Source: a virus (taxonomy: Duplodnaviria; Heunggongvirae; Uroviricota; Caudoviricetes). From it: a stretch of DNA of 34,933 nt. Below are positions 2,377-29,716 of the stretch, one piece after another (within the stretch, counting starts at the first letter, position 1; each line of letters begins with the position of its first letter). The notes beneath the pieces were generated by a model, which did no database searches, was not told the DNA's origin, and worked only from the letters and a program-made list of their open reading frames with translations. The position numbers were made by a program, and so were the translations under genes. The DNA lies in the IMG/VR virus record IMGVR_UViG_2778261229_000002, positions 1 to 34,933 of that record. One strand, written 5' to 3'.

Positions 2377-2421
2377 TTGAAATAACGTGAGCTATGCATT
2401 TATTATTACCTTTACGGTAAA
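2377..2421 (+). promoter_or_regulatory. Rightward promoter (TTGAAA-18 bp-TATTAT) overlapped by operator ATTACCTTTACGGTAAA
   Basis: Hexamers at 2377-2382 and 2401-2406; operator at 2405-2421. Reads toward the structured leader and ant. Confidence 0.45.
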
Positions 2422-2511
2422 TTTACATCGCACTCCTCTTGTGCCATAGTAATCGGGCACTGGCAAAATCCAGTGCCGGGATTGGTCTCCCGGATTACTA
2501 AGTGGCGCATA

Positions 2512-2533
2512 CCACGCCAGACGTGGTTTTTTT
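2512..2533 (+). terminator. Intrinsic terminator CCACG-ccaga-CGTGG followed by TTTTTTT
   Basis: Hairpin at 2512-2526 plus a 7-T run, between the operator-controlled promoter and the ant start codon. Confidence 0.55.
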
Positions 2534-2691
2534 ATGCGTATAGCACAGTCATGCCAGAATTATGGTGGGCTGAATGGGGGTCCGAAAGGACGCCGGTACC
2601 ACTTAGGCCGGTAAGACCAACTCCGTTCAGTTCACCACCATCTGATTGGTCTCAGCGGTGGTGATGTAATTCGCTAAGTGGAGACGCCATC

Positions 2692-3348
2692 ATGAACGCT
2701 CAACTCATCCCCGTATTCAACGGCACTATATCTAACGAAACAGCCCTACTTTGTAATGCCCGCGATCTGCACGCTTTTTTAGGTGTTAAAAAGGTGTTTG
2801 CAGCATGGATTACAAATCGCATTTCAGAATACGAATTCATTGAAAATCAAGACTATATTTTGCTTTCCAATTTGGGAAAGCAAACATCTGGTAGAGGCGG
2901 CCACAACCGCAAAGAGTACCACCTCACCCTTGATACAGCCAAAGAGCTGGCGATGGTCGAGCGTAACGAAAAAGGTCGCCAGGTACGACGCTACTTCATT
3001 GAATGCGAGAAACGTTTAAGACAACAAGAAACAAAAGTGGAGAAGGTCTTGTCAGGCTTCATGCCAGCCATTATGGAGGCGATCAAGCTGGAAGACAAAA
3101 AAGAATACAGTGCCCCACTGAAGCCTGGCTACCGCAGTCTGATTCATTCTCCGTCTGGTGTTCTCGGCCTGACGGAGAACTCACTGCTGATGAATCTGCT
3201 GAACCAGTTACAGGAAGACGGGCACGACGTATCGGGCGCGGCGGCGGAGTTGACCACCATGTTCTGCTACATCGTCGGTGTGAGCAAATGCCTGCGTGAT
3301 ATCCAGACGCACGCGGAGTACATCAACGACAAAGCAGGGTTCTTCTGA
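2692..3348 (+). CDS. ant: Phage antirepressor (AntA/AntB-type N-terminal domain plus C-terminal domain)
   Basis: N-terminal block LIPVFNG...[35 protein letters not shown]...[33 protein letters not shown] matches the AntA/AntB antirepressor family as I remember it. GGAG lies 8 nt upstream of the ATG. Confidence 0.7.
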
Positions 3349-3456: not shown

Positions 3457-3666
3457 ATGGGATTTTGGTTCGCTCGTACAAAAACGAGGGATAATGCACC
3501 CAGCCCTCAGGCAAAAAATGCAGAAGTTCCGGCGTCAGCGCAGGTTAACAAGCGTGGTGGAGTATATATCTCATCACAGCAAATTTCTGAGCTTCCTGAG
3601 GTTAAGGAGATGCGTCGTCTCGCTGCTGCAATTGTTAAACAGGATCTTGCCACTGTAAGGAAGTAG
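3457..3666 (+). CDS. Hypothetical small protein, 69 aa (cargo cassette 2, first gene)
   Basis: Strong RBS GAGGAGGAG 3-11 nt upstream of the ATG. Stop TAG at 3664-3666 shares G3666 with the GTG start of the next gene. Confidence 0.55.
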   Translation: MGFWFARTKTRDNAPSPQAKNAEVPASAQVNKRGGVYISSQQISELPEVKEMRRLAAAIVKQDLATVRK

Positions 3667-4532
3667 TGTTGCTAGCTCTTCTAATTATCCCAATCCTGGT
3701 TAGCGGTTATATTATGATAACCGCTAACCAGTATCATTATTTCCGTTTATACCGACACGAAGGCCAGCTTCTTTATATGAAAGTAGCGGCACTAGGTACA
3801 TATTGCCTTGTTGCATCAGTAATAATTGCAGCCGCTATAAAATATAAATGGCCTGATTTTCACCTAGTTCACGATATGGTGGAAACTTTTAATGTAACAT
3901 CAAAACCAGAAACAGATAGAATTTACATGTGGCTGCTTCTTCTCTCAGCCACATCCATTTGCTTCTCTTTGTGTTATGTGTCTGTTGTGTGGGTGAAAGA
4001 TTTTCTTCTTGGTTGTTTTTATAAACGTGATATTTACGAGCAAAAAACAGAGGCAATGAAGGCCAGAGTACTGCGAAAAACTTACTCGCAAGGTTCTTTA
4101 GACTTACTATTGCTTGATGCTATTGAATCGGATCCTAAACGACCAATGTTGATTACTTTATCATCAAACAAAGTGTATGTTGGAATAATAAATGGTTCTG
4201 GTGAACCAACGGAAAATCAGGGTCCGCATCAGCACATATCTTTTGTTCCTTTAATGTCAGGATACAGGAACAAAGAAAACTTATCTGTCACATTCACTAA
4301 TGCTTATCCAGGAGAAATACAGGTCAAGCGGACTGCAGCAATAAGAGGAATTAGCAGAAAGAAAGTGCCAGGACTTGAGATCATGGTGTCTATTGACGAA
4401 ATAAGTTATATATCATGGTTTGATTTTGAAGTATATAAAGCAACAAATAACAAAGTAGAATCCAGGGGGCACGTTATTCGTGTTACCAAAAATGGAAGAA
4501 ATATATATCAAAGAAATAGCAAAAAAGAATAG
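3666..4532 (+). CDS. Hypothetical membrane protein, 288 aa, three N-terminal TM helices plus a soluble C-terminal domain of about 170 aa (cargo cassette 2)
   Basis: Hydrophobic segments LLALLIIPILVSGYIMI, VAALGTYCLVASVIIAAAI and IYMWLLLLSATSICFSLCYVSVVWV. Coding region is visibly AT-rich compared with flanking phage genes (by eye, not computed). Start could instead be the internal ATG about 40 nt downstream. Confidence 0.6.
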   Translation: MLLALLIIPILVSGYIMITANQYHYFRLYRHEGQLLYMKVAALGTYCLVASVIIAAAIKYKWPDFHLVHDMVETFNVTSKPETDRIYMWLLLLSATSICFSLCYVSVVWVKDFLLGCFYKRDIYEQKTEAMKARVLRKTYSQGSLDLLLLDAIESDPKRPMLITLSSNKVYVGIINGSGEPTENQGPHQHISFVPLMSGYRNKENLSVTFTNAYPGEIQVKRTAAIRGISRKKVPGLEIMVSIDEISYISWFDFEVYKATNNKVESRGHVIRVTKNGRNIYQRNSKKE

Positions 4533-4786: not shown

Positions 4787-4808
4787 AAACAAGGCCGCGA
4801 AAGCGGCC
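4784..4808 (-). terminator. Second copy of the GGCCGCGAAAGCGGCC terminator hairpin (T-run on the minus strand)
   Basis: Hairpin at 4793-4808; on the minus strand it is followed by TTGTTTTTAACG, directly after the stop of the 98-aa membrane-protein gene. Confidence 0.5.
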
Positions 4809-4809
4809 T

Positions 4810-4821
4810 GTGACATGTCAC
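4810..4821. repeat. 12-bp perfect palindrome GTGACATGTCAC (copy 1 of 3)
   Basis: Identical 12-mers at 4810-4821, 22023-22034 and 24324-24335. This copy overlaps the stop codon of the 4818..5114 gene. Confidence 0.6.
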
Positions 4822-5114
4822 GTTCCTTTTCTGAATGATAGCCGTTCGAAAAATGATGACATTCCACCGCAGACAATAGCAAAGATGATCCCACCAAAGA
4901 AGAGAAGGCCAGCCTGCCACCACTCCCACCGCCATACATCCACAGCACCAACCATACCAACAATCGCTCCAACAAATGGAATATAGCTCACGATGAAAGC
5001 AATGGGGGCTGCAATTATCCAGTGCAATCCCCACCATGATTCAAGCCCAGCCATAATTGCTGCCAACTGAAAAAGGCCAACGACGATATAAACAATGAAT
5101 CCTATCGCTTGCAT
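4818..5114 (-). CDS. Small integral membrane protein, 98 aa
   Basis: ORF track. At least three hydrophobic helices and a Trp-rich segment (VWRWEWWQ). Confidence 0.5.
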   Translation of the reverse strand: MQAIGFIVYIVVGLFQLAAIMAGLESWWGLHWIIAAPIAFIVSYIPFVGAIVGMVGAVDVWRWEWWQAGLLFFGGIIFAIVCGGMSSFFERLSFRKGT

Positions 5115-5309: not shown

Positions 5310-7784
5310 TTATTGCGGAGTGACATCCTGAGGTCGCCACCAGTATGTCTGATTAAACTCTTTCTTCGAACGTTGCTCCATTTTACGCAAATAGCCTGGT
5401 GAAAAATACTCCTGCATCTGGTTAAAGATCATATGATCGAGAGCCGCCTTTAAGTACCAGAGATTCGCACCTGGCATCAAACCTTTCCCCAGCTTCACCA
5501 GATCACCACCAGTCTGCTCACTCTTCCCTTCCACAGCATTTAACGGTATGCCCTGAGCAATCTTCACTACGTCATCAACCAGACCAGCTACCGGGCCAAG
5601 CATCGACGCCAGCGCGCCGCTTCCGTACCTAGTGTGATCTGACAATAAAAAGTCACCGTAAAGGCCAAGGCCACCACCTTTCAGTAGAGCACCAAGCCAG
5701 AATTTTGCGGCACCTTCTCCTGTCATCTCTCGAGGATTACGACCAGACGCAAGGTCGTTAAGTTGCTGCGACAAAGCGCCAAGAATGGTCGTACTGGCAA
5801 TAAACGTCGCAATATATGCCGCACGCCCACCAGCAGACGGCATACCCATAGCGCGTGACCAGTGACGCATAACAACCGAGATAGGGAACGATTTAAACAG
5901 GAAAACACTTCTCGTTAATTCACCTTTCCATGTTCCACGCTGAATACCAGAACCGGTTATCAGTTGCTCACGTGCTCCCGGTGTAATAACAGCCATATCA
6001 ACTTCTTCAGTTACGGCACCGAGCAGTTTACGCATTGCCTCAAATTTCACTCGTTCAGGCTCACCAAGATGTTTAACTGCTGAATCAGGGATACGCATAA
6101 TGCTTTCCGGTGTCAGCATCGTATTATTACCGTTCCCCCAGTCCTCCTGTTGCGCCAGCTTCCATACGCTCCAGTCTGTGTCAGTAATCCCTTTGCTTTT
6201 CAGGATACGAAAATCAGAGTCATCGAGGCTACGAAGGTCTGGTGTCCGTGACACTACTTCTCCCAGGCTTCCCATCATGGTTACGCCATAGGCGCGCTTG
6301 TGCGCATCTGACCATGCTGTAAGCCCACTGGCACGCATTACGGCCGTTGCCGCCCAACGAGACACTGACGGCCCCATATTATCCATCGCCCAGCGGTTAA
6401 CGCTGCCAAGTAGAGATTCCATCGCCAGACCAGCGCGGCGCGCCCGCGCAAGTTCTGTACGGTTCGTTGGGTCCATAGCTTCAAGCTGGTTGCGGAATAA
6501 CTGGTTCATTGGAAGGTTGGTAACCTTCGCAGACAGATACATAGTTCCAAGATCAGAGAACGATGACAGCAACGCGGATCCGAGTCTGCTGGCAACCAGC
6601 CAGTTGCGGATATTGTCAGACCATCGCGCGATGTGCGGATTCGCTACAGGCTGTGTCTTTCCAGAAATAAAGTTGTACAGATTCTCTGTGTTGTTCGCCA
6701 GCCGCTCGACTTTACCGGTTTTACTCGGGTTAGCTGTTGCCGTTTCTGCCTTAACCTGATCAAGAAGGGAGCGGAAAACATGATCGGGGTTTGGGCCATA
6801 TGTTTCCACCAGTGCAATATCTTTACTGATACCTTCCAGGTGACCGACCATGATTTCCCATAGAGAGCGATCGCCATAAAGTTGCTGATATTGCAGATAG
6901 GAATCTGCATCTTTGAAATGTATCTGTCGTGATGCATTACCACGGTTAGCACGTGCGCCGGAAATTCGCATTCCGGTATCAGTAAGCTTATTCAGCCCAC
7001 CAGTAGCGATCGTGTTATAAGCCTCTCCAAGAAATGCAGACAACTCGGCATCGTTCATCAGTTGTCCATCGGCTCGGGTATAATATTTGCGATCCAGCTT
7101 ACCTATAACATCGCTAACCCATTTATCTTTTGATACCGCCCTAACCTTTTCCATAGAATGATGTTGAGGGATCCCCCAGTTTTCGAGATAGCCAATGTCC
7201 CCACCAGCATCATTAAACCGGCGGCGGAGTAGATCTGTCACTTCTCTCCACGCCTTAGCACCTTTTCTTGCTTTAGCATTGCCAGTATTTTGCCCTCGCA
7301 TTTCATATACCAGGTCACGCACACCCGCTTCGTCTTCAAACAGGCCAAAAAAGCGAGGATCAACTGCTTCGAATGCCTCCTGCAATTGACTCAATGCATA
7401 ATCACGAGTGGCTTTTGTTCTGGACTCAACAGAGAGGAAATTCGATTTACCGTCTGCATTAAAAGCAATAGTACGGTTAAGAGCGCCAAGTTTCCCATCA
7501 GCCCCTTGATAGCTATTGATAAATTTATCCAATCTCTGACGTGCGGCTATAGTAAGAGCCACACGACGTTTCTTTAATGCCGCTTCTCGCTGTAATTCTT
7601 CAGATGCCAATTGTGCTGCACGATACAGCCGCTCTGACTCGGAAAGTTGTCGCCACGACATAGGGTCATCACGAGCAATGGAGCGCATATTGCGATAAAT
7701 GCGGTCTTCAATGTTCTGTATTTCTCGCGCCGTTAACGTGCGCTGCGCCGCCTGCTGGACCGCTTGTATACATTCCTGTCTCAT
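5310..7784 (-). CDS. Large virion internal / ejection (core) protein, 824 aa
   Basis: Size and position at the distal end of the virion operon. Assigned by analogy with T7 gp15/gp16 and P22 ejection proteins, not by a recognised motif. Confidence 0.5.
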   Translation of the reverse strand: MRQECIQAVQQAAQRTLTAREIQNIEDRIYRNMRSIARDDPMSWRQLSESERLYRAAQLASEELQREAALKKRRVALTIAARQRLDKFINSYQGADGKLGALNRTIAFNADGKSNFLSVESRTKATRDYALSQLQEAFEAVDPRFFGLFEDEAGVRDLVYEMRGQNTGNAKARKGAKAWREVTDLLRRRFNDAGGDIGYLENWGIPQHHSMEKVRAVSKDKWVSDVIGKLDRKYYTRADGQLMNDAELSAFLGEAYNTIATGGLNKLTDTGMRISGARANRGNASRQIHFKDADSYLQYQQLYGDRSLWEIMVGHLEGISKDIALVETYGPNPDHVFRSLLDQVKAETATANPSKTGKVERLANNTENLYNFISGKTQPVANPHIARWSDNIRNWLVASRLGSALLSSFSDLGTMYLSAKVTNLPMNQLFRNQLEAMDPTNRTELARARRAGLAMESLLGSVNRWAMDNMGPSVSRWAATAVMRASGLTAWSDAHKRAYGVTMMGSLGEVVSRTPDLRSLDDSDFRILKSKGITDTDWSVWKLAQQEDWGNGNNTMLTPESIMRIPDSAVKHLGEPERVKFEAMRKLLGAVTEEVDMAVITPGAREQLITGSGIQRGTWKGELTRSVFLFKSFPISVVMRHWSRAMGMPSAGGRAAYIATFIASTTILGALSQQLNDLASGRNPREMTGEGAAKFWLGALLKGGGLGLYGDFLLSDHTRYGSGALASMLGPVAGLVDDVVKIAQGIPLNAVEGKSEQTGGDLVKLGKGLMPGANLWYLKAALDHMIFNQMQEYFSPGYLRKMEQRSKKEFNQTYWWRPQDVTPQ

Positions 7785-7789
7785 TTAAT

Positions 7790-9592
7790 TTAACCTCTCA
7801 AGAAACACGCCACAGCGACATCAAACAGGCTGGAATCCTGTATTGCCTGCTCACTTTCCCTGTTCGTTTCATCCAGTACTTCACGCGCACTGCGCGATTG
7901 TGGATTACCATCATCATCCAGCACGGTGATTATCATGTCAGGTGATTCAAGCAGCGAGTCTTCAGCTATGCGCAGATCAATATCTCCTGCCTGATCTGAC
8001 ATCATTTTTTGTTCTGTCTGTTGCAATATCTTACCGGGCTCAAAAGGAGCTACTTCGTCTGGCGTCCTGACCTCTGCTGTTTTATAGAATGAAACAGCCT
8101 GAGCATTAAGTTCACTTTCTGCCTGCTGTCGCCGTGCCAGTTCTGCTCGAGCTTCAAAAAACTGACCGCCAGGCTCATGCGGTGCCAACGCGTTACGGGA
8201 AAATTCCAAGCGTTCTTGTGCCTGCCGGATTCGTTGGTCAATATCGCGAAGTCTGGCCTGTTTATCTGATCGAGCACGAGATAAAGCCTTACCGCTACCG
8301 GTTGGCTCTTCTGCAAGAATTTGTGCGCGCTGTTCAGTGAGATTTTCAATAATTCGTTGGCTATTAGCGATTTCAGACTGGTAAACCTGTCTATCGCCAC
8401 GCGGCAAAAGCTGCGCGGCCTGTTCTTCAAGCAACCGATTTTCTATAGCGCGCGCCGTTACTCCATCATCTACAGATGACAGAGCCTCATTAACTGCCTG
8501 AGACAGCAGACTCTTGCGCCCAGGAATTTCACTGAAAGATGCAGACTCAACAATGCTGGCAACGTCTACAGGTCTCCCCTGGCTAACATCAGACATGGCT
8601 TTTCGCAGAGCCTGAATGTGAGAATTGCGCGAAAGCACGTTGATCGGCACGCCGGGCGCAATATCAATTTCAGCATGATGAGCGGCATTCGCCGCCAGTG
8701 CAGCATCGATATCAACTGGTGAAAAATTTGGTGCGCTTGTAGACTCGCCGCGAGAGTTAATAAATCTGCCGACACCACCAAACACCACCCCAAGAACAGC
8801 ATCAATAGCAATTGCCTGTCTATCCAACACATCATACTGGTTAGCCATTTCGCTATAGCCACCATCACGAAGCGTTTTTGCAGTAAGCCCACGCTGTGCC
8901 ATACCGAACGCAATATTTGTACCTGCGGCATAGGCAATATCTGGCGTTGCACGTACTGCTGTTGCTGCGGCGCGTCGCACTGAACTTTCACCCGTCCGCG
9001 CAAGCTGAGCCGCCACACCTTCCGCCAGCGCACCACCAGCACGTAACCCGAGGCTCATAGGGATCAGTGTTCCGGCACCAGCTGTAATACCCTGCACTAA
9101 TCCCGCTTCCTGCGCCGCCCTGAAATCAACCCCCTGTGCTGTCAGCCGTTCAAACTCAGAAAAACCCTGTAGCGAAGTTACCGCCGCTGCACCTCCGACC
9201 GGACCACCGAGCGTTGTACCGACAACAGCCTGCCCGCCCATATCGAACAACCCATAAAGAACCTGCCCGGCGGTTCCGGTTGTCGCGGCATCAGGCGTCA
9301 GCCGCTTAACCTGCTGCTCTGCTAGTTTTCTCTGCTCGGCAATGTATGAAACTGAAGTATCATTGAGCGAGGTGTTTTCGTTAATAAACTGAGCAATCGG
9401 GGATACGATTTTATCCATCCCTGCCCATAGCAACTGATCTGGCTTTGCCACCAGCCCGGAGTACAAACCAGACAATGCCGCTCCTACAGCATTGTCGAAA
9501 AAACCAACATCGCTGTTAAAGCCCGCTGGATTTGATGCTGCTTCGTCAAGTTGCTGATTCTGGTTTCCTGGATTAAGGCCAAAGTAACTCAT
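7790..9592 (-). CDS. Virion internal / ejection protein, 600 aa, Ala/Gly-rich
   Basis: ORF track. Its stop overlaps the start of the next gene (ATGA-type junction at 9589-9592). Structural-operon context. Confidence 0.5.
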   Translation of the reverse strand: MSYFGLNPGNQNQQLDEAASNPAGFNSDVGFFDNAVGAALSGLYSGLVAKPDQLLWAGMDKIVSPIAQFINENTSLNDTSVSYIAEQRKLAEQQVKRLTPDAATTGTAGQVLYGLFDMGGQAVVGTTLGGPVGGAAAVTSLQGFSEFERLTAQGVDFRAAQEAGLVQGITAGAGTLIPMSLGLRAGGALAEGVAAQLARTGESSVRRAAATAVRATPDIAYAAGTNIAFGMAQRGLTAKTLRDGGYSEMANQYDVLDRQAIAIDAVLGVVFGGVGRFINSRGESTSAPNFSPVDIDAALAANAAHHAEIDIAPGVPINVLSRNSHIQALRKAMSDVSQGRPVDVASIVESASFSEIPGRKSLLSQAVNEALSSVDDGVTARAIENRLLEEQAAQLLPRGDRQVYQSEIANSQRIIENLTEQRAQILAEEPTGSGKALSRARSDKQARLRDIDQRIRQAQERLEFSRNALAPHEPGGQFFEARAELARRQQAESELNAQAVSFYKTAEVRTPDEVAPFEPGKILQQTEQKMMSDQAGDIDLRIAEDSLLESPDMIITVLDDDGNPQSRSAREVLDETNRESEQAIQDSSLFDVAVACFLRG

Positions 9593-19098: not shown

Positions 19099-19391
19099 TC
19101 CTGTTCACTGGCCTCTTTGGCCATCTTCAAATACTGTTCAGGGCAATGCGCCATAACGCGCTGAAACAGTTCCAGCGCCAGATTGCGTTGCCCCTCATTA
19201 AATGCCATTGCCATAGCGTCCATCGGTGAGATAGCGGAAAACACACGGCCTTTCTCCAGCACCGACCAGACAACGCGACGCCCCTGTTCACTGCTCATGA
19301 CAAAGCGAATGTCATCAATTTCACGCTGTGCCATGTCACGTTGCTTACGGGCGTTTTCTTCTTTCAGTTGATCATCTTCGTAATCTGTCAT
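19095..19391 (-). CDS. Hypothetical protein, 98 aa, between portal and scaffold
   Basis: ORF track; 4-bp overlaps with both neighbours indicate translational coupling. Confidence 0.45.
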   Translation of the reverse strand: MTDYEDDQLKEENARKQRDMAQREIDDIRFVMSSEQGRRVVWSVLEKGRVFSAISPMDAMAMAFNEGQRNLALELFQRVMAHCPEQYLKMAKEASEQE

Positions 19392-21067
19392 TGTGATTGC
19401 CCACCCTGACCACTAACTGCATTCGCCATAGCTGACAAAACACTCGGATCCGAAGTTTTAGCTTCGCTTAGCGTCTTGGCACCCTGTGCCGCCGCCATCC
19501 CCATCGCCATCATTTGTTGCTGCTGTTGTTGCTGTGCCCGTTGCTGGCGAGCCTGCTCAACCTGTTCCTGCGGAACAATGACGGTTGGAGACACTCCGGA
19601 CATATCAGCGAATGCATCGATCGCCTGATCAACGTTGAGTTTGTCGAGAGCTTCTGGTTTCGCTTGCGCAAGTTGACCAATGAAGTTAACCGTGGACGCC
19701 AGACTGGACAGGCCGATAGACTTCTGCGCCTGAGCCATGACGGAAATGTATTCGACCTTCAGGGGCATGCCTTCCATCGCGTCAGGCGGTGGCGGCAGCA
19801 TGTTTTTGCGCACCATCATCGAGAAAGCGCGGTCAATGAGAGGATTAAGACATTCGTCGTTCAGACGCTCCAGAACCGGCCCCAACATCAGAAGTTTTTC
19901 TTCTTTCATTTCGATCACCGCTTCAACAGGCATCGAGCGGGTATTGATGTTCTGCAACATCATGAACAGATCGACAAAGTAGGCGCTGTTAATGATTTGA
20001 CGAGTGTCCTGAATGTCTGCCACCAAATCTGCTGTACTGGGGTTAACCAGATAAGCAGGCCTGAAGCCATCCTGACCAGTAATCTGATCGATATACGTGA
20101 TGTCGCCAGGAAGAAGGGAGGCGCGCTGATTCTTGAGGGAAGTCGGAGCAACCATCGGCGGATTGGTGGCTTTATCAATCAACTGCGACTTGCGCTTCTG
20201 GAGAAGCTGCAATGCCTTAACAGGTCCAAGCGCCAGCATACCCGGGCATGATGATCCATAAACATCTTCGCCGTTAACTTCCCAGCGCGGAGCCATAATT
20301 GGAAACTCATCGAATCCGGACTCACGCAACAACTTGTCGTTATCTCCACCAACCTCGTAATAAACCGATTTGAATGGCTTGTTCTTGCTATCCAGCTTCG
20401 ATGTATCGCGGTCAATGTTCGGGTAAACCGAATGCATCACTTCGATCCACTTCTCGTAGGTGCCGCTTTCCCACATGCTTTTTACGGATTTGCTGACGTT
20501 ATTTAGCCCGAACTCCTGAACAAGCTGACGAACAGTCATAGAGAACTTGCGAAAACAGGTGTCAACACTGCCACGAGGTGAGTTAGCCAGGTAGTAACTG
20601 CCTATCGGGAATGGCATTGTGCGAATGATGTCCTCGTCATCCTCCAGCACTGCCATTGCACCAGTGCTGTATGTGCCGAGGCTTCCGTATAACTGCGGAA
20701 GAGACTGGTAGAGATTCGACTTATTGAACATATCGTTCATGCGGTTCTGAACTGCCTCAAGCCACAACTTAACAGGGCCATAATCCATCATTTCAGGATC
20801 TGGCGTAGCCAGGCGAAACCACGGACGCGCGGGGCTTGTGATGCCTGACATCATGCCGCTGGCGAGAGTGCGCGCCGCCATAGTCCCGGTCGAATCAATA
20901 ATGCGTGTATTGCGCCGATCGTTACGGTTGGCCTCAGAAGTCAGAAAGCGGGAACCACGCGGGTTGATGTAATCACTCAACTCGCGCCAGTGCGGCTCGA
21001 ACGACTGACGCTCGCTTTCAAGTTGTGCGAACTGTTTGTTCAATCGCTCTTTAGTTGTTTCCGCCAT
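19388..21067 (-). CDS. Portal protein, 559 aa
   Basis: Size and position immediately downstream of the terminase genes; C-terminal Gln-rich tail (QQRAQQQQQQQMMAMGMAAAQG). Confidence 0.7.
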   Translation of the reverse strand: MAETTKERLNKQFAQLESERQSFEPHWRELSDYINPRGSRFLTSEANRNDRRNTRIIDSTGTMAARTLASGMMSGITSPARPWFRLATPDPEMMDYGPVKLWLEAVQNRMNDMFNKSNLYQSLPQLYGSLGTYSTGAMAVLEDDEDIIRTMPFPIGSYYLANSPRGSVDTCFRKFSMTVRQLVQEFGLNNVSKSVKSMWESGTYEKWIEVMHSVYPNIDRDTSKLDSKNKPFKSVYYEVGGDNDKLLRESGFDEFPIMAPRWEVNGEDVYGSSCPGMLALGPVKALQLLQKRKSQLIDKATNPPMVAPTSLKNQRASLLPGDITYIDQITGQDGFRPAYLVNPSTADLVADIQDTRQIINSAYFVDLFMMLQNINTRSMPVEAVIEMKEEKLLMLGPVLERLNDECLNPLIDRAFSMMVRKNMLPPPPDAMEGMPLKVEYISVMAQAQKSIGLSSLASTVNFIGQLAQAKPEALDKLNVDQAIDAFADMSGVSPTVIVPQEQVEQARQQRAQQQQQQQMMAMGMAAAQGAKTLSEAKTSDPSVLSAMANAVSGQGGQSQ

Positions 21068-21081
21068 TTCAATGACTCCGG

Positions 21082-21288
21082 TTACTGACCAAGCAGCGTT
21101 TTACCGCTGGTATTAGCGGTTGATGTGTCGCCCTGAGAACCGGTAAGCAGCGTAGAACTACGACCAGCAGCAGCGCGACGGCGACGTGTTTCTTCGTCGC
21201 GGGCATCAACAACGGCGGCATCCTGCTCCTGTGGTGCTGCCTGAACTTCTGGTGTTGCAGGCACTGATGGTGAGCTACCCATGCACAT
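21082..21288 (-). CDS. Hypothetical small protein, 68 aa, upstream of portal
   Basis: ORF track. Arg-rich and low complexity; could be non-coding. Confidence 0.3.
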   Translation of the reverse strand: MCMGSSPSVPATPEVQAAPQEQDAAVVDARDEETRRRRAAAGRSSTLLTGSQGDTSTANTSGKTLLGQ

Positions 21289-21356
21289 ATCAATGACTCC
21301 GTACGCAATTAAATTATTACCAATTTAACCACATATGATTTATTTATCGTAGAATG

Positions 21357-21394
21357 TTGACATTTAACGCGTGAATTATTACCTTTCAGGTAAC
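21357..21394 (+). promoter_or_regulatory. TTGACA box plus operator ATTACCTTTCAGGTAAC upstream of the tRNA insert
   Basis: TTGACA at 21357-21362; operator palindrome at 21378-21394. I could not find a convincing -10 hexamer at correct spacing. Confidence 0.35.
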
Positions 21395-21715
21395 CAAAGA
21401 GCTCATTCTGGTTACTAACCTGACTGGCTTGTCGTTAAATTAAACAGGTGGAGTGAGCTTTTATTTTGAGCAGTACGGCGTATGGCACATGCGCCGATAG
21501 CGGTCTGGATACGTTTAAGGGGCACCCTCCCTTGCTCGGGCAAACGAACCAGGTAGCCGGAATGTGTAAGTCGAGCGGTTTTATTCCGCGCACGGGGATT
21601 CACCATCCCGGCGATTCGGTGTGACGCCTCGGAAGAGACGAGGGTACAACGATGAGAGCATTTATGGAGCCGCGACAAAGTGTGGCGCCTTAACAGGCTA
21701 AGTGCTCTCAGCGTT

Positions 21716-21792
21716 GTGGCATTAGCTCAGTTAGACAGAGCAACCGCCTTCTAAGCGGTTGGTCGCAGGTTCGAATCCTGCATGCCACGCCA
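21716..21792 (+). tRNA. tRNA-Arg (anticodon UCU), 77 nt, argU-like
   Basis: Cloverleaf folded by hand: acceptor GTGGCAT/ATGCCAC, D-stem GCTC/GAGC, anticodon stem ACCGC/GCGGT with loop CTTCTAA, T-arm GCAGG-TTCGAAT-CCTGC, discriminator G and encoded CCA. Anticodon loop and T-arm are identical to E. coli argU as I recall it. Confidence 0.85.
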
Positions 21793-21836
21793 GAATCACG
21801 CCTAAGGACCGTGATGCCAGAAGTTCCAGGTGCTTG

Positions 21837-21878
21837 GCGGTGATGGTTTCCCTTGAAGGACTATCACCGCCCTTTTTA
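21837..21878 (+). terminator. Terminator downstream of the tRNA (GGCGGTGATGG ... CTATCACCGCC followed by CTTTTT)
   Basis: 11-bp stem with one mismatch and a 13-nt loop, followed by a T-run, about 45 nt after the tRNA 3' end. Confidence 0.5.
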
Positions 21879-22022
21879 CAGCAGGACGCCATTGCGATGA
21901 CTTCATGCTGTAAACCAGTACAGCCACGGAAGGCATAACTCATTGCTTCCAGTTCGCCCGGTTCGCCGGGCATTTTTTTAAGGTGTGAATCATGAAATAC
22001 GAATTTGATGGATTTTGATGTC

Positions 22023-22034
22023 GTGACATGTCAC
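22023..22034. repeat. 12-bp palindrome GTGACATGTCAC (copy 2 of 3)
   Basis: Exact copy; lies between the terminase large subunit stop and the tRNA insert. Confidence 0.6.
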
Positions 22035-22039
22035 AAACA

Positions 22040-22066
22040 GCCAGCCGATGAGCTGGCTTTGTTTTA
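22040..22066 (+). terminator. Hairpin GCCAGC-cgatga-GCTGGC followed by TTTGTTTTAT
   Basis: Immediately after palindrome copy 2. T-rich on the plus strand and partly T-rich on the minus strand, so possibly bidirectional. Confidence 0.4.
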
Positions 22067-22108
22067 TCCTCACCAGAGGATATCAGCAGCATTATCCCCT
22101 CCAGAGGA

Positions 22109-23584
22109 TTAAGCATAGGGATCGTAATCTGTAATGGCCTTGCCTTGCTGGTTCTGCTGACCGGGAATTCGCAGACGCTTCGACACCGGGAAAGCAAACG
22201 TCAGCAGTAGCGCATCGCCTTTACCCGGCGAACGCCCAAGCCGCTCCTTGATATCTTCCTTCGGTTCGATAACGATTTTACCGTCCACGCGAACTTTGTA
22301 CTCTGCCGCCGACAGGTCGTCCGCTGTTTCCTGGTCATCCAGCATGCCGCCCAGCCTCAGCCATGTCTTGCATGCATTGAACATCTCCCCACGCTTGTTA
22401 AGCATCTGCGGGTCAGTGGACGCACCGCCGAACGGAACAAGTTGCCATGTACGTCCCCAGCCATCACCGATTGACTTCAAACCGGTTCCGTAACCGAAGT
22501 CGATGAACACCGCGTCAGCCTGGTACTGGTCTTCAAAGTCAGCGATACGCTTCGCCATAATCAGATCGTCGGTGGTCTTGTTGCCAGTCCACAACACCTT
22601 ACTGTGCAGCCCCTGCCGCAGGTATATCACAGCGTCATCAACGCCGGAGTATGCCGGGTCAACGCCGATTATCACCGGAGCATGTGCCACCTGCGCAGCG
22701 GTTACCACCCGTTTCATTGCCTCGTCAGTAAGACCGGTAGGGATAAACTGCAATTCAGATGCATCAGGGAATATGCCACGCACACGGATTTTAACGAAGT
22801 CGCTGTCTTCCCCGTAGTCATCAACCCATTTCTGCAACTGATGTTTGTTAGTGCCTTCCACCGTCCGGCTGTCAATCTGCGCAGTTTTCCAGCGATGTTT
22901 ATATTTGCGGAAACATTCGCGGAAACGTCCGGTGTTACGTGTAGGGTTTCCGAACGCCACCCAGATAATCTCAGTGTCTTCGTCCGTAAGCGCACCCTCA
23001 GCAACTTCCCACACCAGATCCGCAATGTTCGACGCTTCATCGAATACCACGATGATGCGTTTGCGCTCGTTGTGTAGTCCGGCGAATGCCTCAGTGTTGT
23101 GCTCAGACCAGGGGATTGCGTCAGCTCGCCACCGCTTGTCGTGCCCAGGGTCATTGCTGTACATCGCGGTAGCGGTACAGGTAAACCAGTCTTTCGTGAT
23201 AGCAAGGTTCGACCACTTGATAATTTCCGGCCAGGTCTTCGTTCGTAGCTGGTTGTCGGTGTTGGCGGTCACCACGACCTTACAATCCTCGCAAGTGGAC
23301 ATGCCCCAGTTGATCAACATTGAGATGAATGCTGATTTACCAATACCGTGGCCCGAAGCACGTGCCAGCATAAGCGGCTGATAGCGCGTCTCGGGATTCT
23401 GCAGGTGATCACGTATCTCTCGGAACGCATCGGCCTGCCACTGACGTGGGCCGGTAGCATGTGCCAGTTCAGTCCCCTCTTCCCCCCACGGGAACGCATA
23501 GAGGGCATAGCCAAGCGGATCGTGAGTGAACCCTGCAATATCCTCGATCAACTGCTCTTCAGGAGATAACGCTGCATCTGTCAC
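22109..23584 (-). CDS. terL: Terminase large subunit, 491 aa
   Basis: Walker A-like motif (ARASGHGIGKS) in the N-terminal ATPase part; size and position after the small subunit. Confidence 0.8.
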   Translation of the reverse strand: MTDAALSPEEQLIEDIAGFTHDPLGYALYAFPWGEEGTELAHATGPRQWQADAFREIRDHLQNPETRYQPLMLARASGHGIGKSAFISMLINWGMSTCEDCKVVVTANTDNQLRTKTWPEIIKWSNLAITKDWFTCTATAMYSNDPGHDKRWRADAIPWSEHNTEAFAGLHNERKRIIVVFDEASNIADLVWEVAEGALTDEDTEIIWVAFGNPTRNTGRFRECFRKYKHRWKTAQIDSRTVEGTNKHQLQKWVDDYGEDSDFVKIRVRGIFPDASELQFIPTGLTDEAMKRVVTAAQVAHAPVIIGVDPAYSGVDDAVIYLRQGLHSKVLWTGNKTTDDLIMAKRIADFEDQYQADAVFIDFGYGTGLKSIGDGWGRTWQLVPFGGASTDPQMLNKRGEMFNACKTWLRLGGMLDDQETADDLSAAEYKVRVDGKIVIEPKEDIKERLGRSPGKGDALLLTFAFPVSKRLRIPGQQNQQGKAITDYDPYA

Positions 23585-24213
23585 TGATTGCCATCCTGAC
23601 GTTCTTTGAGTCGCTTCCTGGCTGCTGCTATGCGATCAGCAATTGTCACATTCACATTAACATCCAGACGTTCTTTGAACGCGTTAACGTCGACGTGCTT
23701 ACCGATGAGCTCGAGGTTTTTCACCTTGTCGGGCCATTTCACCTTCTTCAGGATATGCTCGACATCCTCAACAGAGAAATCCGCCTCGCCATTCTCTTTT
23801 TGCAGGGAAGCCTGGGTTGTCTTGATGGTAGCGATATCCATAGCACTGAGAGAGGTACGCCAGACCTTCGGCCATTCAGCGATCGGCTTCATCCCGCCGT
23901 CATCGTTCAGTATATCCAGCACGTCCATCTGGTCGATCTCCACCAGGCGCATGAGAACGTAATCAGCACTGACGCGCATTCGTTTGTTGCGCTCCTCCAT
24001 CAACTCGGCAATCCGTTTTTGAATGCGTTCATCGCGCATCATGACACTGGCTTTAACTGCCGCTGTATTTGGGGAGAATCCTGCGTTAATCGCTGCCTGA
24101 GTCTGGTTTTCAGGCGTTTTGATGTATGACTGGCAATAAGCCTCCTGCATTGCTGTTAGTGGCTTAAATTGCGTTGATTTGCGTTTATAGGTTTTAGGTT
24201 CAGCAGGCATCAT
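23581..24213 (-). CDS. terS: Terminase small subunit, about 210 aa
   Basis: ORF-track frame 23581..24291; I prefer the start at the MM pair (24208-24213), because the upstream 26 codons run through a tandem DNA repeat. HTH-like block QEAYCQSYIKTPENQTQAAINAGFSPNTAAVKASVMM is typical of P27-type small terminases. Stop overlaps the terL start. Confidence 0.65.
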   Translation of the reverse strand: MMPAEPKTYKRKSTQFKPLTAMQEAYCQSYIKTPENQTQAAINAGFSPNTAAVKASVMMRDERIQKRIAELMEERNKRMRVSADYVLMRLVEIDQMDVLDILNDDGGMKPIAEWPKVWRTSLSAMDIATIKTTQASLQKENGEADFSVEDVEHILKKVKWPDKVKNLELIGKHVDVNAFKERLDVNVNVTIADRIAAARKRLKERQDGNQ

Positions 24214-24220
24214 AACCACC

Positions 24221-24252
24221 GTGGTAATAGTTACCGTTGTGGTAATAGTACC
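24221..24252. repeat. Tandem 15-bp direct repeat GTGGTAATAGTTACC / GTGGTAATAGTACC, each an internal palindrome
   Basis: Two adjacent copies separated by GTT, immediately upstream of the terS start. The half-sites GGTAA/TTACC are the operator half-sites in inverted arrangement. Confidence 0.5.
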
Positions 24253-24282
24253 ATGCAAAATAAAGCCGCCATAGTTGGCGGC
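24253..24282 (-). terminator. Intrinsic terminator on the minus strand (GCCGCC-aactat-GGCGGC followed by TTTATTTTG)
   Basis: Hairpin at 24265-24282 with a T-rich tract on the minus strand, between the 115-aa gene and terS. Confidence 0.5.
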
Positions 24283-24323
24283 AGTATTCAAAACCCGTCA
24301 AATTCATCATGCATAATCTACTC

Positions 24324-28118: not shown

Positions 28119-28919
28119 TTACTTGATAAATCCTGCCGCCTTTCCCCGCCTGTATTCCTCCATCAGCCACTGCGCCGGTGTTATTCCCCCCAGGGTAGCG
28201 GCGTTAGGCATACACCCGAAACTTCGCCCTGGTGGATGGTAAACGTCTCTCCCTGTGTCCGGAGGCGTACTCATGGGTTCTGGCTTTGCCTGTATGCTGA
28301 TCACCGGATCGGGTATCTGCTGTCCGGAAGCCACCTTTTTCGCCCAATCATCAAGCAGCCTGCGCGCGTGTTTCTCAACCTCAATCTCGCTAAGCTGGCG
28401 CTGATACATTGCACGGCGGGTATCACATACGACCCAGTACATAACCGGATGCCGCCACGGGAATCTTTCGGGACCACCAGGATATAAACTTTTTTCCTTG
28501 CTGTACCGGTGAAACTCCGCCATCACATCGTCAATGGTGACGCCAAGAACCATCTTGCTGTCTTTGCACCACTTGATAAATTGCCCTGGCGACGGCCAGA
28601 ACGGAGATTCACTGGCGCGGGCGTGGCGCATACCAGCAGAAACCTGTTCACGGGTTCGGATCCCACCTTCGGCAAACGCAGCAATCCACTGCTGTTTTGC
28701 AGCAACTTCCTGCTCTGGCGTCTTCAGGTTGGTTACCACTGCCGCCGGAAACAGCTGTTTCAGCTGTTTGAAAAGGGCATCAACAAGCCTCTCTGCTGAC
28801 ATGTTCACCACATTGTCATTGTTGACGTACTGATGCTCATAACCTGACATGCGAGAAAGGGCTTCTCCGTCACGGTTTTGTATCGCGGTAAAAACGTTGT
28901 TCACAAGAAATCCTCCCAC
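28119..28919 (-). CDS. Replication protein P-like (helicase loader), 266 aa
   Basis: Block QQWIAAFAEGGIRTREQVSAGMRHARASESPFWPSPGQFIKWCKD aligns closely with lambda P as I recall it (RRQWVLAFRENGITTMEQVNAGMRVARRQNRPFLPSPGQFVAWCRE). Confidence 0.7.
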   Translation of the reverse strand: MGGFLVNNVFTAIQNRDGEALSRMSGYEHQYVNNDNVVNMSAERLVDALFKQLKQLFPAAVVTNLKTPEQEVAAKQQWIAAFAEGGIRTREQVSAGMRHARASESPFWPSPGQFIKWCKDSKMVLGVTIDDVMAEFHRYSKEKSLYPGGPERFPWRHPVMYWVVCDTRRAMYQRQLSEIEVEKHARRLLDDWAKKVASGQQIPDPVISIQAKPEPMSTPPDTGRDVYHPPGRSFGCMPNAATLGGITPAQWLMEEYRRGKAAGFIK

Positions 28920-29716
28920 GCTTCAGGGCTGTTCCAGTGCGGAACGTTGTTATCAGGTAATGTTGATTGCTTCTGTCTGCTAATCTGCAGCCGCCTTGCT
29001 AGCTTCTGCTCCCACTGTGCCTGATGGTATGCCTTACCCTCAGCCATCCAGTAAATTCTGAACTCTGCAAGTTCCTGTGCCGTTGGCAGACTGTCCAGGT
29101 AGATCCCCTGCAATGAGCTTTTCCGAAGAAAGTCATCTGATGGCTGCCATTGTTCATGCATGACAAATTTGCCTAATTGCCCTGGCCCACCAGGAGGAAC
29201 AAAGTTATTCATCACGGCGTTGTTTGCGCCGGGGTCATGATGCACAGAATCCCCGTTTTTTGTCCTGCTCTCCCTCTCTTGGTTAAATGACTGGTTATAT
29301 GACTGGTTCTGGATCCCGTTTTTGGGATCATTCAACATCCCGTTTTTGGGATCATTCAACATCCCGTTTTTGGGTATATTCCCGTTTTCGGTAACATTAC
29401 CGTTTTCGGGTTCATTGCCCCCCTCTCGGTTGCCTTTAATGTTCCCGTTTTTGGTTATATTAAGAGAGAAAACCCGCACTCTTTTTGTCGCTCCCTTTCT
29501 CTCCCCGGTATCTGAAATAAGCCCCATTTTCATGAGCGATATAAGTCCGGCCTGCACGGTTTTTTTATTCAGGCAAGTGTCTTTAACGAGGCGTTCTATG
29601 CTGGGGTAGCAGAGGTTATATTCATCGGCTCTGTCAGCCATCGAGAGCAGTATGAGCTTTAATGACGAGCTACCTGGATCTGTCTCCCAGGCCCAATCTG
29701 TTGCATGTCTGCTCAT
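28901..29716 (-). CDS. Replication initiator (O-like) with internal origin iterons, 271 aa
   Basis: Position upstream of the P-like gene; DNA iterons inside the coding region produce the repetitive Asn/Gly-rich segment (NGMLNDPKNGMLNDPKNG). Confidence 0.6.
   Translation of the reverse strand: MSRHATDWAWETDPGSSSLKLILLSMADRADEYNLCYPSIERLVKDTCLNKKTVQAGLISLMKMGLISDTGERKGATKRVRVFSLNITKNGNIKGNREGGNEPENGNVTENGNIPKNGMLNDPKNGMLNDPKNGIQNQSYNQSFNQERESRTKNGDSVHHDPGANNAVMNNFVPPGGPGQLGKFVMHEQWQPSDDFLRKSSLQGIYLDSLPTAQELAEFRIYWMAEGKAYHQAQWEQKLARRLQISRQKQSTLPDNNVPHWNSPEAWEDFL
29314..29461. repeat. Replication-origin iteron array, about six copies of CCCGTTTTTGGG(A/T)T-like units, including an exact 24-bp tandem duplication
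   Basis: TCCCGTTTTTGGGATCATTCAACA at 29314-29337 and again at 29338-29361, followed by degenerate copies up to about 29461. Lies inside the O-like gene, as in lambda ori. Confidence 0.7.

Follow-up and report, generated by a model that had tools for sequence, protein, structure and literature searches.

A non-coding transcription unit opposite the late genes of an epsilon15-like phage carries tRNA-Arg(UCU) in an exchangeable cargo slot behind a conserved leader

The gap beside the gene for the terminase large subunit (terL) in a Caudoviricetes phage (IMG/VR record IMGVR_UViG_2778261229_000002, of which positions 1 to 34,933 were analysed and are here called the window) is a non-coding transcription unit reading opposite to the late genes. 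In order, the unit comprises a predicted promoter, overlapped by an operator of the phage, then a short hairpin module, the pseudoknotted RNA of ~175 nucleotides (nt) that is here called the core, a long stalk, a transfer RNA (tRNA-Arg(UCU)), a conserved hairpin and terminators. The tRNA by itself is routine; the notable part is the leader, which is very probably a conserved structured RNA co-transcribed with the tRNA. Elsewhere the core family lies at or near the start of repressor-controlled early transcripts, and the tRNA fills a fixed slot in which several cargos can replace one another. An earlier note on this DNA, made without database searches, had recognised a self-contained unit with a tRNA-Arg(UCU) opposite to the late genes, which ARAGORN, Rfam and the order of promoter, operator, leader, tRNA and terminators confirm; what it missed is the nature of the leader, a structured RNA of wide conservation that need not be accompanied by a tRNA. 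The core family lacks a match in Rfam and appears to be undescribed; the literature, searched also with raw sequence strings, yielded no description, though an earlier one may exist.

The structured core of the leader

Covariance model R1 has a single match in the window, at 21473-21647 (144.3 bits, E value 7e-45). The parts of this core and the hairpin module in front of it are listed below in window coordinates; related loci are denoted by L numbers throughout.

21396..21463, + strand: hairpin module, here called Unit-S, with the closing stem AAAGAGCTCA/TGAGCTTTT and the inner motif GTCGTTAAAT at 21431-21440
21473..21647, + strand: core structured RNA, ~175 nt, with five helices and a pseudoknot
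21476-21496, + strand: core helix P1
21501-21508 with 21549-21553 and 21557-21559, + strand: core helix P2
21560-21570, + strand: conserved single strand of the core, GAATGTGTAAG
variable element, + strand: core helix P3
21595-21599/21605-21609, + strand: core helix P4
CACC 21601-21604 with GGTG 21618-21621, + strand: core pseudoknot, joining the P4 loop to the downstream GGUG
21627-21631/21639-21643, + strand: core helix P5, with a GAAGAGA loop

The fold was assessed by covariation in two sets of sequences. For the first, made up of 30 sequences with less than 95% identity between any two, the structure was derived by eye; across P1, P2, P4, the pseudoknot and P5, 93.8% of the cells were paired, as against 28-53% with slid partners. 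The second set, a model-based alignment of 71 distinct sequences with a divergent subclass included, had 94.1% of the cells paired (slid controls, 28-49%), a level that 0 of 500 shuffles reached; 19 of the 32 pairs had changed on both sides and compensated changes occurred in 258 cells. Four of the helices were part of the model to which this alignment was fitted. Three elements outside the alignment model covary all the same: the pseudoknot, where C-G becomes A-U; three pairs that extend P2, where G-C becomes A-U; and a lone pair around a GGCGA bulge (G-U, A-U and U-A). RNAalifold proposed a further possible long-range pairing, of GGCACAU at the P1 apex with AUGUGC; both sides are nearly invariant, and the few variants disagree.

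Several segments of the core hardly change at all, namely the P1 apex UAUGGCACAUG, CCGGAAUGUGCAAG, the CACCA loop, GGCG, GGUGUGAC and the P5 loop GGAAGAG. Invariant unpaired stretches reach nineteen nucleotides and are the same across phage families. When an antisense target of the invariant segment was sought within the window, only the core itself was found. A search of 21200-22200 against Rfam 15 returned nothing but the tRNA, even at E<=10, and in 14 related loci neither core nor cargo matched an Rfam family.

The earlier description of the leader as free of any cloverleaf or open reading frame (ORF) holds: ARAGORN reports no cloverleaf there, and the 30 members share no conserved reading frame. 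That the leader encodes a small protein, for example from the − strand ORF 21415-21678 or as mEp460_037, PhiV10p04 or Tyrion gp54, is hardly credible. ORFs are indeed called across the leader in some records, and in the window one − strand frame runs through the core without a stop; however, no frame is open in all members, in 7 of the 30 every one of the six frames contains stops, the lengths show no preference modulo three and the indels are not multiples of three, so the leader is not coding. Substitutions keep the base pairs, including G-U pairs that the other strand would read as A-C, and the near invariance of these G-U pairs identifies the + strand as the RNA strand. The ATG in the stalk is not conserved either.

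Unit-S has a minimum free energy of −20.8 kcal/mol (z score −2.5), and its motif recurs in epsilon15, where the counterpart is annotated as an RNase III site, and in Tyrion, BUCT709 and L013. The module, marked by a GUCGUUAAAU motif and closed by a stem of the type (A)AAGMGC.../...GCKCUUU, recurs before or after cores; further loci are L005 (~2440-2530), L013 and L007.

The tRNA and the cargo slot

Behind the core the following features complete the transcript up to the terminators.

21646..21715, + strand: closing hairpin, here called the stalk, ACAACGATGAGAGCA ... TGCTCTCAGCGTT, ending exactly at tRNA position +1
21716..21792, + strand: tRNA-Arg(UCU) with encoded CCA, found by ARAGORN and by Rfam RF00005 (71.1 bits, E value 8e-14)
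21795..21815, + strand: 3'-flank hairpin, ATCACG-CCTAAGGAC-CGTGAT; the same hairpin follows non-tRNA cargo in L045, L062, L065, L077, L090 and L105

Both programs accept the cloverleaf: the RF00005 score is well above the gathering score of 29, and ARAGORN places the anticodon tct at position 35 and calls no other tRNA in the whole window. The gene is annotated as tRNA-Arg in relatives. It has the T-loop GGTTCGAATCC and the CCA end; at position 18 (window 21733) it carries an A, so that it reads GTTAGAC, as against GTTGGAC with the near-universal G18 in all relatives. The exact sequence occurs in only 1 of 5426 E. coli genomes (NZ_CP095533.1), and sequences of 95-99% identity are found in 504 records. 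The earlier note had called the tRNA argU-like. The UCU anticodon stands, but the gene is not a copy of chromosomal argU: identity is 84.5% over nt 7-77 and the 5' acceptor strand cannot be aligned.

Codon supplementation, which the same note had proposed, is plausible, although not for the late packaging and head genes among which the tRNA lies. In 33 crudely called ORFs of the window, AGA and AGG occur 5.8 and 4.1 times per 1000 codons; in E. coli K-12 the values are ~2 and ~1, so the excess is roughly three-fold. The terS-terL-portal-capsid block nearly lacks the two codons, which cluster in 3666-4532, 5310-9592 and 28901-29716. Supplementation would thus serve tail and early genes and not the genes that flank the tRNA.

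The stalk is exceptionally stable (−35.8 kcal/mol, z score −5.95; 0 of 200 shuffles as stable). Its flanks are conserved across loci while the inner insert varies, and its 3' arm (...GCTCTCAGCGTT) leads directly into a cargo that begins with GTGG and ends with CCAC(A/G)(A/C)C. In many loci the cargo is followed by the hairpin AATCACG-CCTNAGGAC-CGTGAT and then by a terminator. The flanks of this slot are constant and the cargo varies across phages. tRNA-Arg(UCU) occupies it in the window and in L001, L012, L016, L020, L025, L030, L035 and L106. In mEp460, Tyrion, SopranoGao and others the cargo is tRNA-like: its stem resembles that of an acceptor, and the sequence of its D-like loop, GCUGAU, is the complement of its T-like loop, AUCAGC; in L090 this loop pair is compensated (GCUAAU/AUUAGC). 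Still other inserts occupy the slot in further loci. Most members of the core family have no tRNA nearby, and in phage P1, L074 and L094 a protein gene or nothing, and no cargo, comes directly after P5. Since the core occurs with and without a tRNA, the two are separable modules. The slot for tRNA and tRNA-mimic cassettes is a separate lead on the shuffling of small RNAs by phages.

Cargo A, a tRNA-like family without an Rfam match that takes the place of the tRNA in other phages, has these D-like and T-like loops, the stem GUGGUGA/UCACCAC and a hypervariable middle, and lies at L003 3245-3375, L006 ~1680-1800, L008 ~1690-1780 and many IMG/VR loci. An attenuator leader peptide starting with ATG-AGA in the stalk was considered and rejected, as stalk units, even some of those in front of the tRNA, do not all keep the ATG.

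The cassette exchange between phages that the slot displays bears on another proposal of the earlier note, that the tRNA is a decoy for integration or a hotspot of recombination. Genes for argU-type tRNAs often serve as integration sites, which is the general ground for this proposal, and yet we regard it as very improbable. The exchange takes place at the conserved RNA flanks and not within the tRNA, the acceptor stem differs from that of argU, no integrase is adjacent to the tRNA among the genes of the window, and phages of the phiV10 type integrate at the 3' end of guaA, where their attP/attB lie (PMC9782041). With the mismatch to argU and the integration of relatives at guaA, the idea is unsupported.

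Repressor control, locus and distribution

The control elements and terminators of the unit are these.

21357..21385, + strand: predicted sigma-70-like promoter, read from sequence, with TTGACA at 21357-21362, a 17-nt spacer and TACCTT at 21380-21385
21378..21394, either strand: operator palindrome ATTACC-TTTCA-GGTAAC, overlapping the -10 element and the likely start site
21836..21877 (hairpin 21836-21871), + strand: terminator-like hairpin 1, a 14-bp stem and a T run, a stable fold
21956..21978 (hairpin 21956-21971), + strand: terminator-like hairpin 2, GCCCGG-TTCG-CCGGGC followed by T7, directly upstream of an ORF stub
22039..22065 (hairpin 22039-22058), + strand: terminator-like hairpin 3, at the 3' end of terL; its counterpart is an annotated terminator in phiV10

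Upstream of the leader, the TTGACA box and the palindrome are both present as the earlier note had them, and for its single terminator we find three terminator-like hairpins on the + strand behind the tRNA. The start site is predicted near 21392. A consensus promoter scanner finds the -10 in the window too weak to be called; the same promoter layout is present in epsilon15, Tyrion and other Uetakevirus loci. The palindrome TTACCTTTCAGGTAA at 21379-21393 overlaps the likely -10, TACCTT. Allowing at most one mismatch, TTACC-N5-GGTAA occurs 15 times in the 35-kb window, where 0.52 copies are expected, and 10 of the copies are perfect (at 885, 2406, 3416, 21379, 24231, 28005, 28067, 30398, 31110 and 31172). 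In epsilon15 the annotation gives the homologous palindrome as a repressor site, which an IHF site overlaps. Given the excess of the palindrome, the unit looks repressor-controlled, and it belongs to a dispersed repressor regulon that is more like the scattered C1 operators of phage P1 than like a single immunity region of the lambda type. Such a unit would be silent in a lysogen and fire on infection or induction.

Another copy of the operator, at 2406-2420, is followed by isrK (2457-2533), a C4 antisense RNA (2558-2642) and an ORF of 218 amino acids (aa; 2692-3348). This stretch (2406-3348) looks like an RNA-controlled module of the phage P1 immI type placed behind the same operator as the tRNA unit.

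The non-coding gap extends from 21289 to 22108, with a 68-aa gene as its leftmost neighbour and terL as its rightmost. The insert of about 1 kb between terL and the portal gene that the earlier note described is therefore real as a gap, but it measures 820 nt and borders the 68-aa gene rather than the portal gene. The neighbouring genes are all on the − strand, opposite to the tRNA.

19388-21067, − strand: portal/head-tail adaptor gene (phrog_332, E value 2.5e-253)
21082-21288, − strand: 68-aa gp3-like gene that precedes the portal gene (phrog_831)
21993-22019, + strand: 8-codon stub ATGAAATACGAATTTGATGGATTTTGA, in the place of the phiV10 p03 / epsilon15 p50 gene
22109-23584, − strand: terL, terminase large subunit (phrog_2, E value 3e-53; so annotated in relatives)
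23581-24291, − strand: terS, a flanking gene

Identity in this region reaches 96-98% with phiV10, phiv142-3, the O157 typing phages 9 and 10 and further members of Uetakevirus, the genus of epsilon15-like podoviruses, and hundreds of E. coli prophages contain the region as well. Every Uetakevirus inspected has a gap between terL and the gp3-like gene, with varying contents; the gap is thus a feature of the genus and not a recent insertion, and its place inside the packaging and head operon is not as unusual as the earlier note had thought. In phiv142-3 the gap is collinear with that of the window. That of phiV10 is ~340 nt longer and carries an extra + strand gene, p03, between terminators 2 and 3, with the counterpart of terminator 2 preceding it. 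The gene at the stub position in phiV10 and epsilon15 (p03/p50, ~122 aa, like Sf6 gp66) lies behind two terminators and is absent from the window and phiv142-3. In Tyrion a different RNA replaces the tRNA, and in epsilon15 a deletion took out most of the leader and the tRNA.

The gap of Tyrion, an Enterobacter phage, also holds an int-alpA RNA (RF02996, 44 bits, L006 2598-2662) downstream of the core and cargo. Public records of these loci probably carry annotation errors, as with the ORF calls PhiV10p04 and mEp460_037, which are antisense over the tRNA or the core. The phiV10 record has no tRNA annotation, and that of phiv142-3 puts the tRNA on the strand opposite to the ARAGORN call; the suspect annotations are at L002 3434-3685, L003 2943-3311 and L001 4434-4502.

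The core is distributed far beyond this genus. A sensitive blastn search with the leader alone matched 86 phage records, among them Uetakeviruses, P1, P7, D6, SJ46 and RCS47, the lambdoid phages mEp460, mEp390, cdtI, 2H10 and Ayreon, Stx2a, Stx2c and Stx2k phages, Klebsiella and Enterobacter phages, and two records of Stenotrophomonas phages. Two exact-pattern scans of IMG/VR gave at least 120 loci each. With the loose pattern GGCACATG-N6,7-AGCGGTC on genome contigs, 2 of the 120 loci listed were genuine (Kosakonia and Phytobacter). The core is present in 1839 of 5426 complete E. coli genomes, in up to four copies; among the 40 E. coli genome matches listed, none has an RNA annotation on the core and one has a 'hypothetical protein' call. 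The core also occurs on plasmids, in 590 records (Escherichia, Salmonella, Klebsiella and Shigella); most of these are ~90-100 kb and non-mobilizable, and we take them to be P1-like phage-plasmids. It appears to have escaped notice in P1, in the prophages of lambdoid type and in about a third of the E. coli genomes.

The core occupies the first transcribed position of early operons in three groups of temperate enterobacterial phages that are unrelated to one another, one of them represented by the model phage P1. In phage P1 it lies at 71023-71191, between trnI and ban in the C1-controlled ban operon, where the richly annotated record has no annotation. In lambdoid phages it lies just downstream of the cI-type repressor gene, on the same strand, after the cI terminator and a promoter with operator-like repeats; examples of this pL position are mEp460, mEp390, BUCT709, Ayreon (with terminator and promoter annotated by the depositor), L094 and L266. 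Helix P1 begins 7-8 nt past the -10 in four independent loci, and a TTGACA-type promoter is found within 150 nt of the core in 23 of 37 non-redundant loci.

Phages of the BUCT709 type have runs of the hairpin-loop motifs GGGAAAGACC / GGGGAAGACC downstream of the core (L007 ~1800-1920; L126). By their sequence these resemble the P5 loop GGAAGAG and could be repeated protein-binding sites. An apparent rrn-type boxA after the core in L094, L033 and L047 was dismissed, being the terminator tail of a convergent, reverse-oriented gene.

Possible function of the core and comparison with known systems

What, then, does the core do? The explanation to which we lean, tentatively, is that it is a cis-acting element of early leaders that promotes read-through of terminators. 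On infection or induction the repressor would leave the operator and the unit would be transcribed. A cut by RNase P at 21716 would free the tRNA, which would help to decode the AGA-rich genes of the phage. The core would fold on the nascent transcript, and its invariant unpaired segments would engage a conserved host machine, most likely the elongating RNA polymerase, which could then continue through the untranslated array and the terminators behind the core. The core would in that case be a functional analogue of the HK022 put RNA or the leader of rrn operons, to neither of which its fold is related.

Several observations support read-through. The layout of promoter, core, cargo, strong terminator(s) and genes recurs. 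In phiV10, p03 lies behind two + strand terminators with no promoter-like site between. In mEp460 the first gene of the pL operon lies behind a terminator with a 10-bp stem (GGCGGTACCAG...CTGGTACCGCTCTTTTT), and L013, L015 and L074 have a core-terminator-gene layout like those of phiV10 and mEp460. In the pL operons examined, no protein could be recognised as resembling N. The unpaired segments do not vary between the backbones of phage P1, lambdoid phages and podoviruses, which argues that the partner is encoded by the host rather than by the phage.

Other observations weigh against read-through. The window and phiv142-3 have nothing downstream to express, and a transcript past the terminators would run antisense into terL; read-through would thus bring no obvious benefit here. 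Apart from one tandem pair (L026), each phage in the records searched has a single copy of the core, unlike putL/putR, and the core has no sequence or structural similarity to put. Epsilon15 is viable without the core and the tRNA, the -10 of the predicted promoter is weak, and the support from the 71-sequence alignment has to be read with its fit to the model in mind. The tandem pair, in an IMG/VR phage, has its cores at 3996-4155 and 4803-4960 on the − strand, ~650 nt apart.

The main rival, which fits the same facts nearly as well, holds that the core is freed by RNase P, by RNase III at the stalks or by a terminator and acts in trans, binding or titrating a conserved host factor early in infection. 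Its purpose would be host takeover or counter-defence, possibly jointly with the tRNA or tRNA-like cargo. We consider this possible but somewhat unlikely. The invariant unpaired segments in unrelated phages would imply a common host partner here too, and the core is retained in the window and phiv142-3 where no same-strand gene lies downstream. The flanks are of a processing type (the 5' end of the tRNA, the long stalk helices, the RNase III annotation in epsilon15), expression appears to be early and repressor-controlled, and the neighbours are tRNAs and tRNA mimics, which are known in phage counter-defence, as with the T5 tRNAs against PARIS and retrons. However, no partner or target was identified, complementarity within the window is to the core itself only, and epsilon15 manages without the core. 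In L074 and phage P1, moreover, the core stands directly in the 5' untranslated region of a protein gene, which would be unusual for a stand-alone small RNA.

A more modest role, that of a passive precursor scaffold which shields the untranslated transcript and positions the cuts of RNases P, III and E but has no function of its own, strikes us as unlikely. The leader is co-transcribed with the cargo, as the 68 nt before the tRNA are all stalk hairpin and leave no room for a separate tRNA promoter; the slot has fixed flanks; and epsilon15 manages without the leader. Nevertheless, most members of the family have no adjacent tRNA, phage P1, L074 and L094 have no cargo at all, and invariant unpaired stretches of nineteen nucleotides exceed the constraint expected of a processing leader.

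We think it possible, though far from assured, that the core founds a class of its own among phage RNAs, one whose members bind a conserved machine of the host as the lytic programme starts (RNA polymerase, which would make the core an antiterminator whose fold is unrelated to that of put, or another central factor), and that with its swappable cargo it forms a modular 'early RNA operon'. Should RNA polymerase be its target, the core would be just the second type of RNA antiterminator in phages and would explain how lambdoid phages that lack N read through early terminators. If it acts in trans, it would be a new early, host-directed phage RNA.

Among known systems, the C4 RNAs of P1 and P7 and the CI RNA of P4 are likewise untranslated RNAs in the leader of a repressor-controlled operon, with processing of the tRNA type (by RNase P), and the window itself carries isrK and C4 behind another copy of the operator. 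The models of the Rfam C4 clan, however, miss the core and the cargo, and the targets of C4 and CI are phage-specific, whereas the loops of the core are invariant across unrelated phages. GOLLD and ROOL are RNAs of 400-800 nt, found mainly in Firmicutes and in rumen or lake metagenomes, that form multimeric cages (PMC12286853). They too are phage-borne structured RNAs linked to tRNA genes, often beside or containing them, but the core is shorter (150-180 nt) and their Rfam models (RF01998 / RF03087-type) give no match.

The rare-codon tRNAs of phages (argN/argO/ileZ of Stx phages and the tRNAs of phage P1) provide a parallel for a tRNA-Arg(UCU) in a temperate coliphage richer in AGA and AGG than its host. 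Here, unlike there, the tRNA has an operator-controlled predicted promoter and a long structured leader, and shares its slot with tRNA-like RNAs. The boxB-boxA-boxC leader of rrn operons protects a long untranslated structured transcript, as we propose for the core, and stalk modules have a boxA-like GCUCUU(U) downstream of a hairpin; these strings are base-paired in the stalks, and the resemblance is only a lead.

A further parallel is provided by putL and putR of HK022, processive antitermination RNAs of ~70 nt with two stem-loops (PMC9378689). RNAs of the put type render RNA polymerase resistant to terminators in cis by way of the zinc-binding domain of its beta' subunit. The core differs in its size (150-180 nt), in its five helices and pseudoknot, in its single copy in place of an L/R pair and in its occurrence also in phage P1 and podoviruses; the immunity region of HK022 has no similarity to it, and model R1 does not hit HK022. 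Like put, however, it is a cis-encoded structured RNA that comes right after a repressor-controlled early promoter (in the pL position; in the window the promoter is a predicted one) and before terminators, in phages without a visible N gene, and its presumed partner is a conserved host machine.

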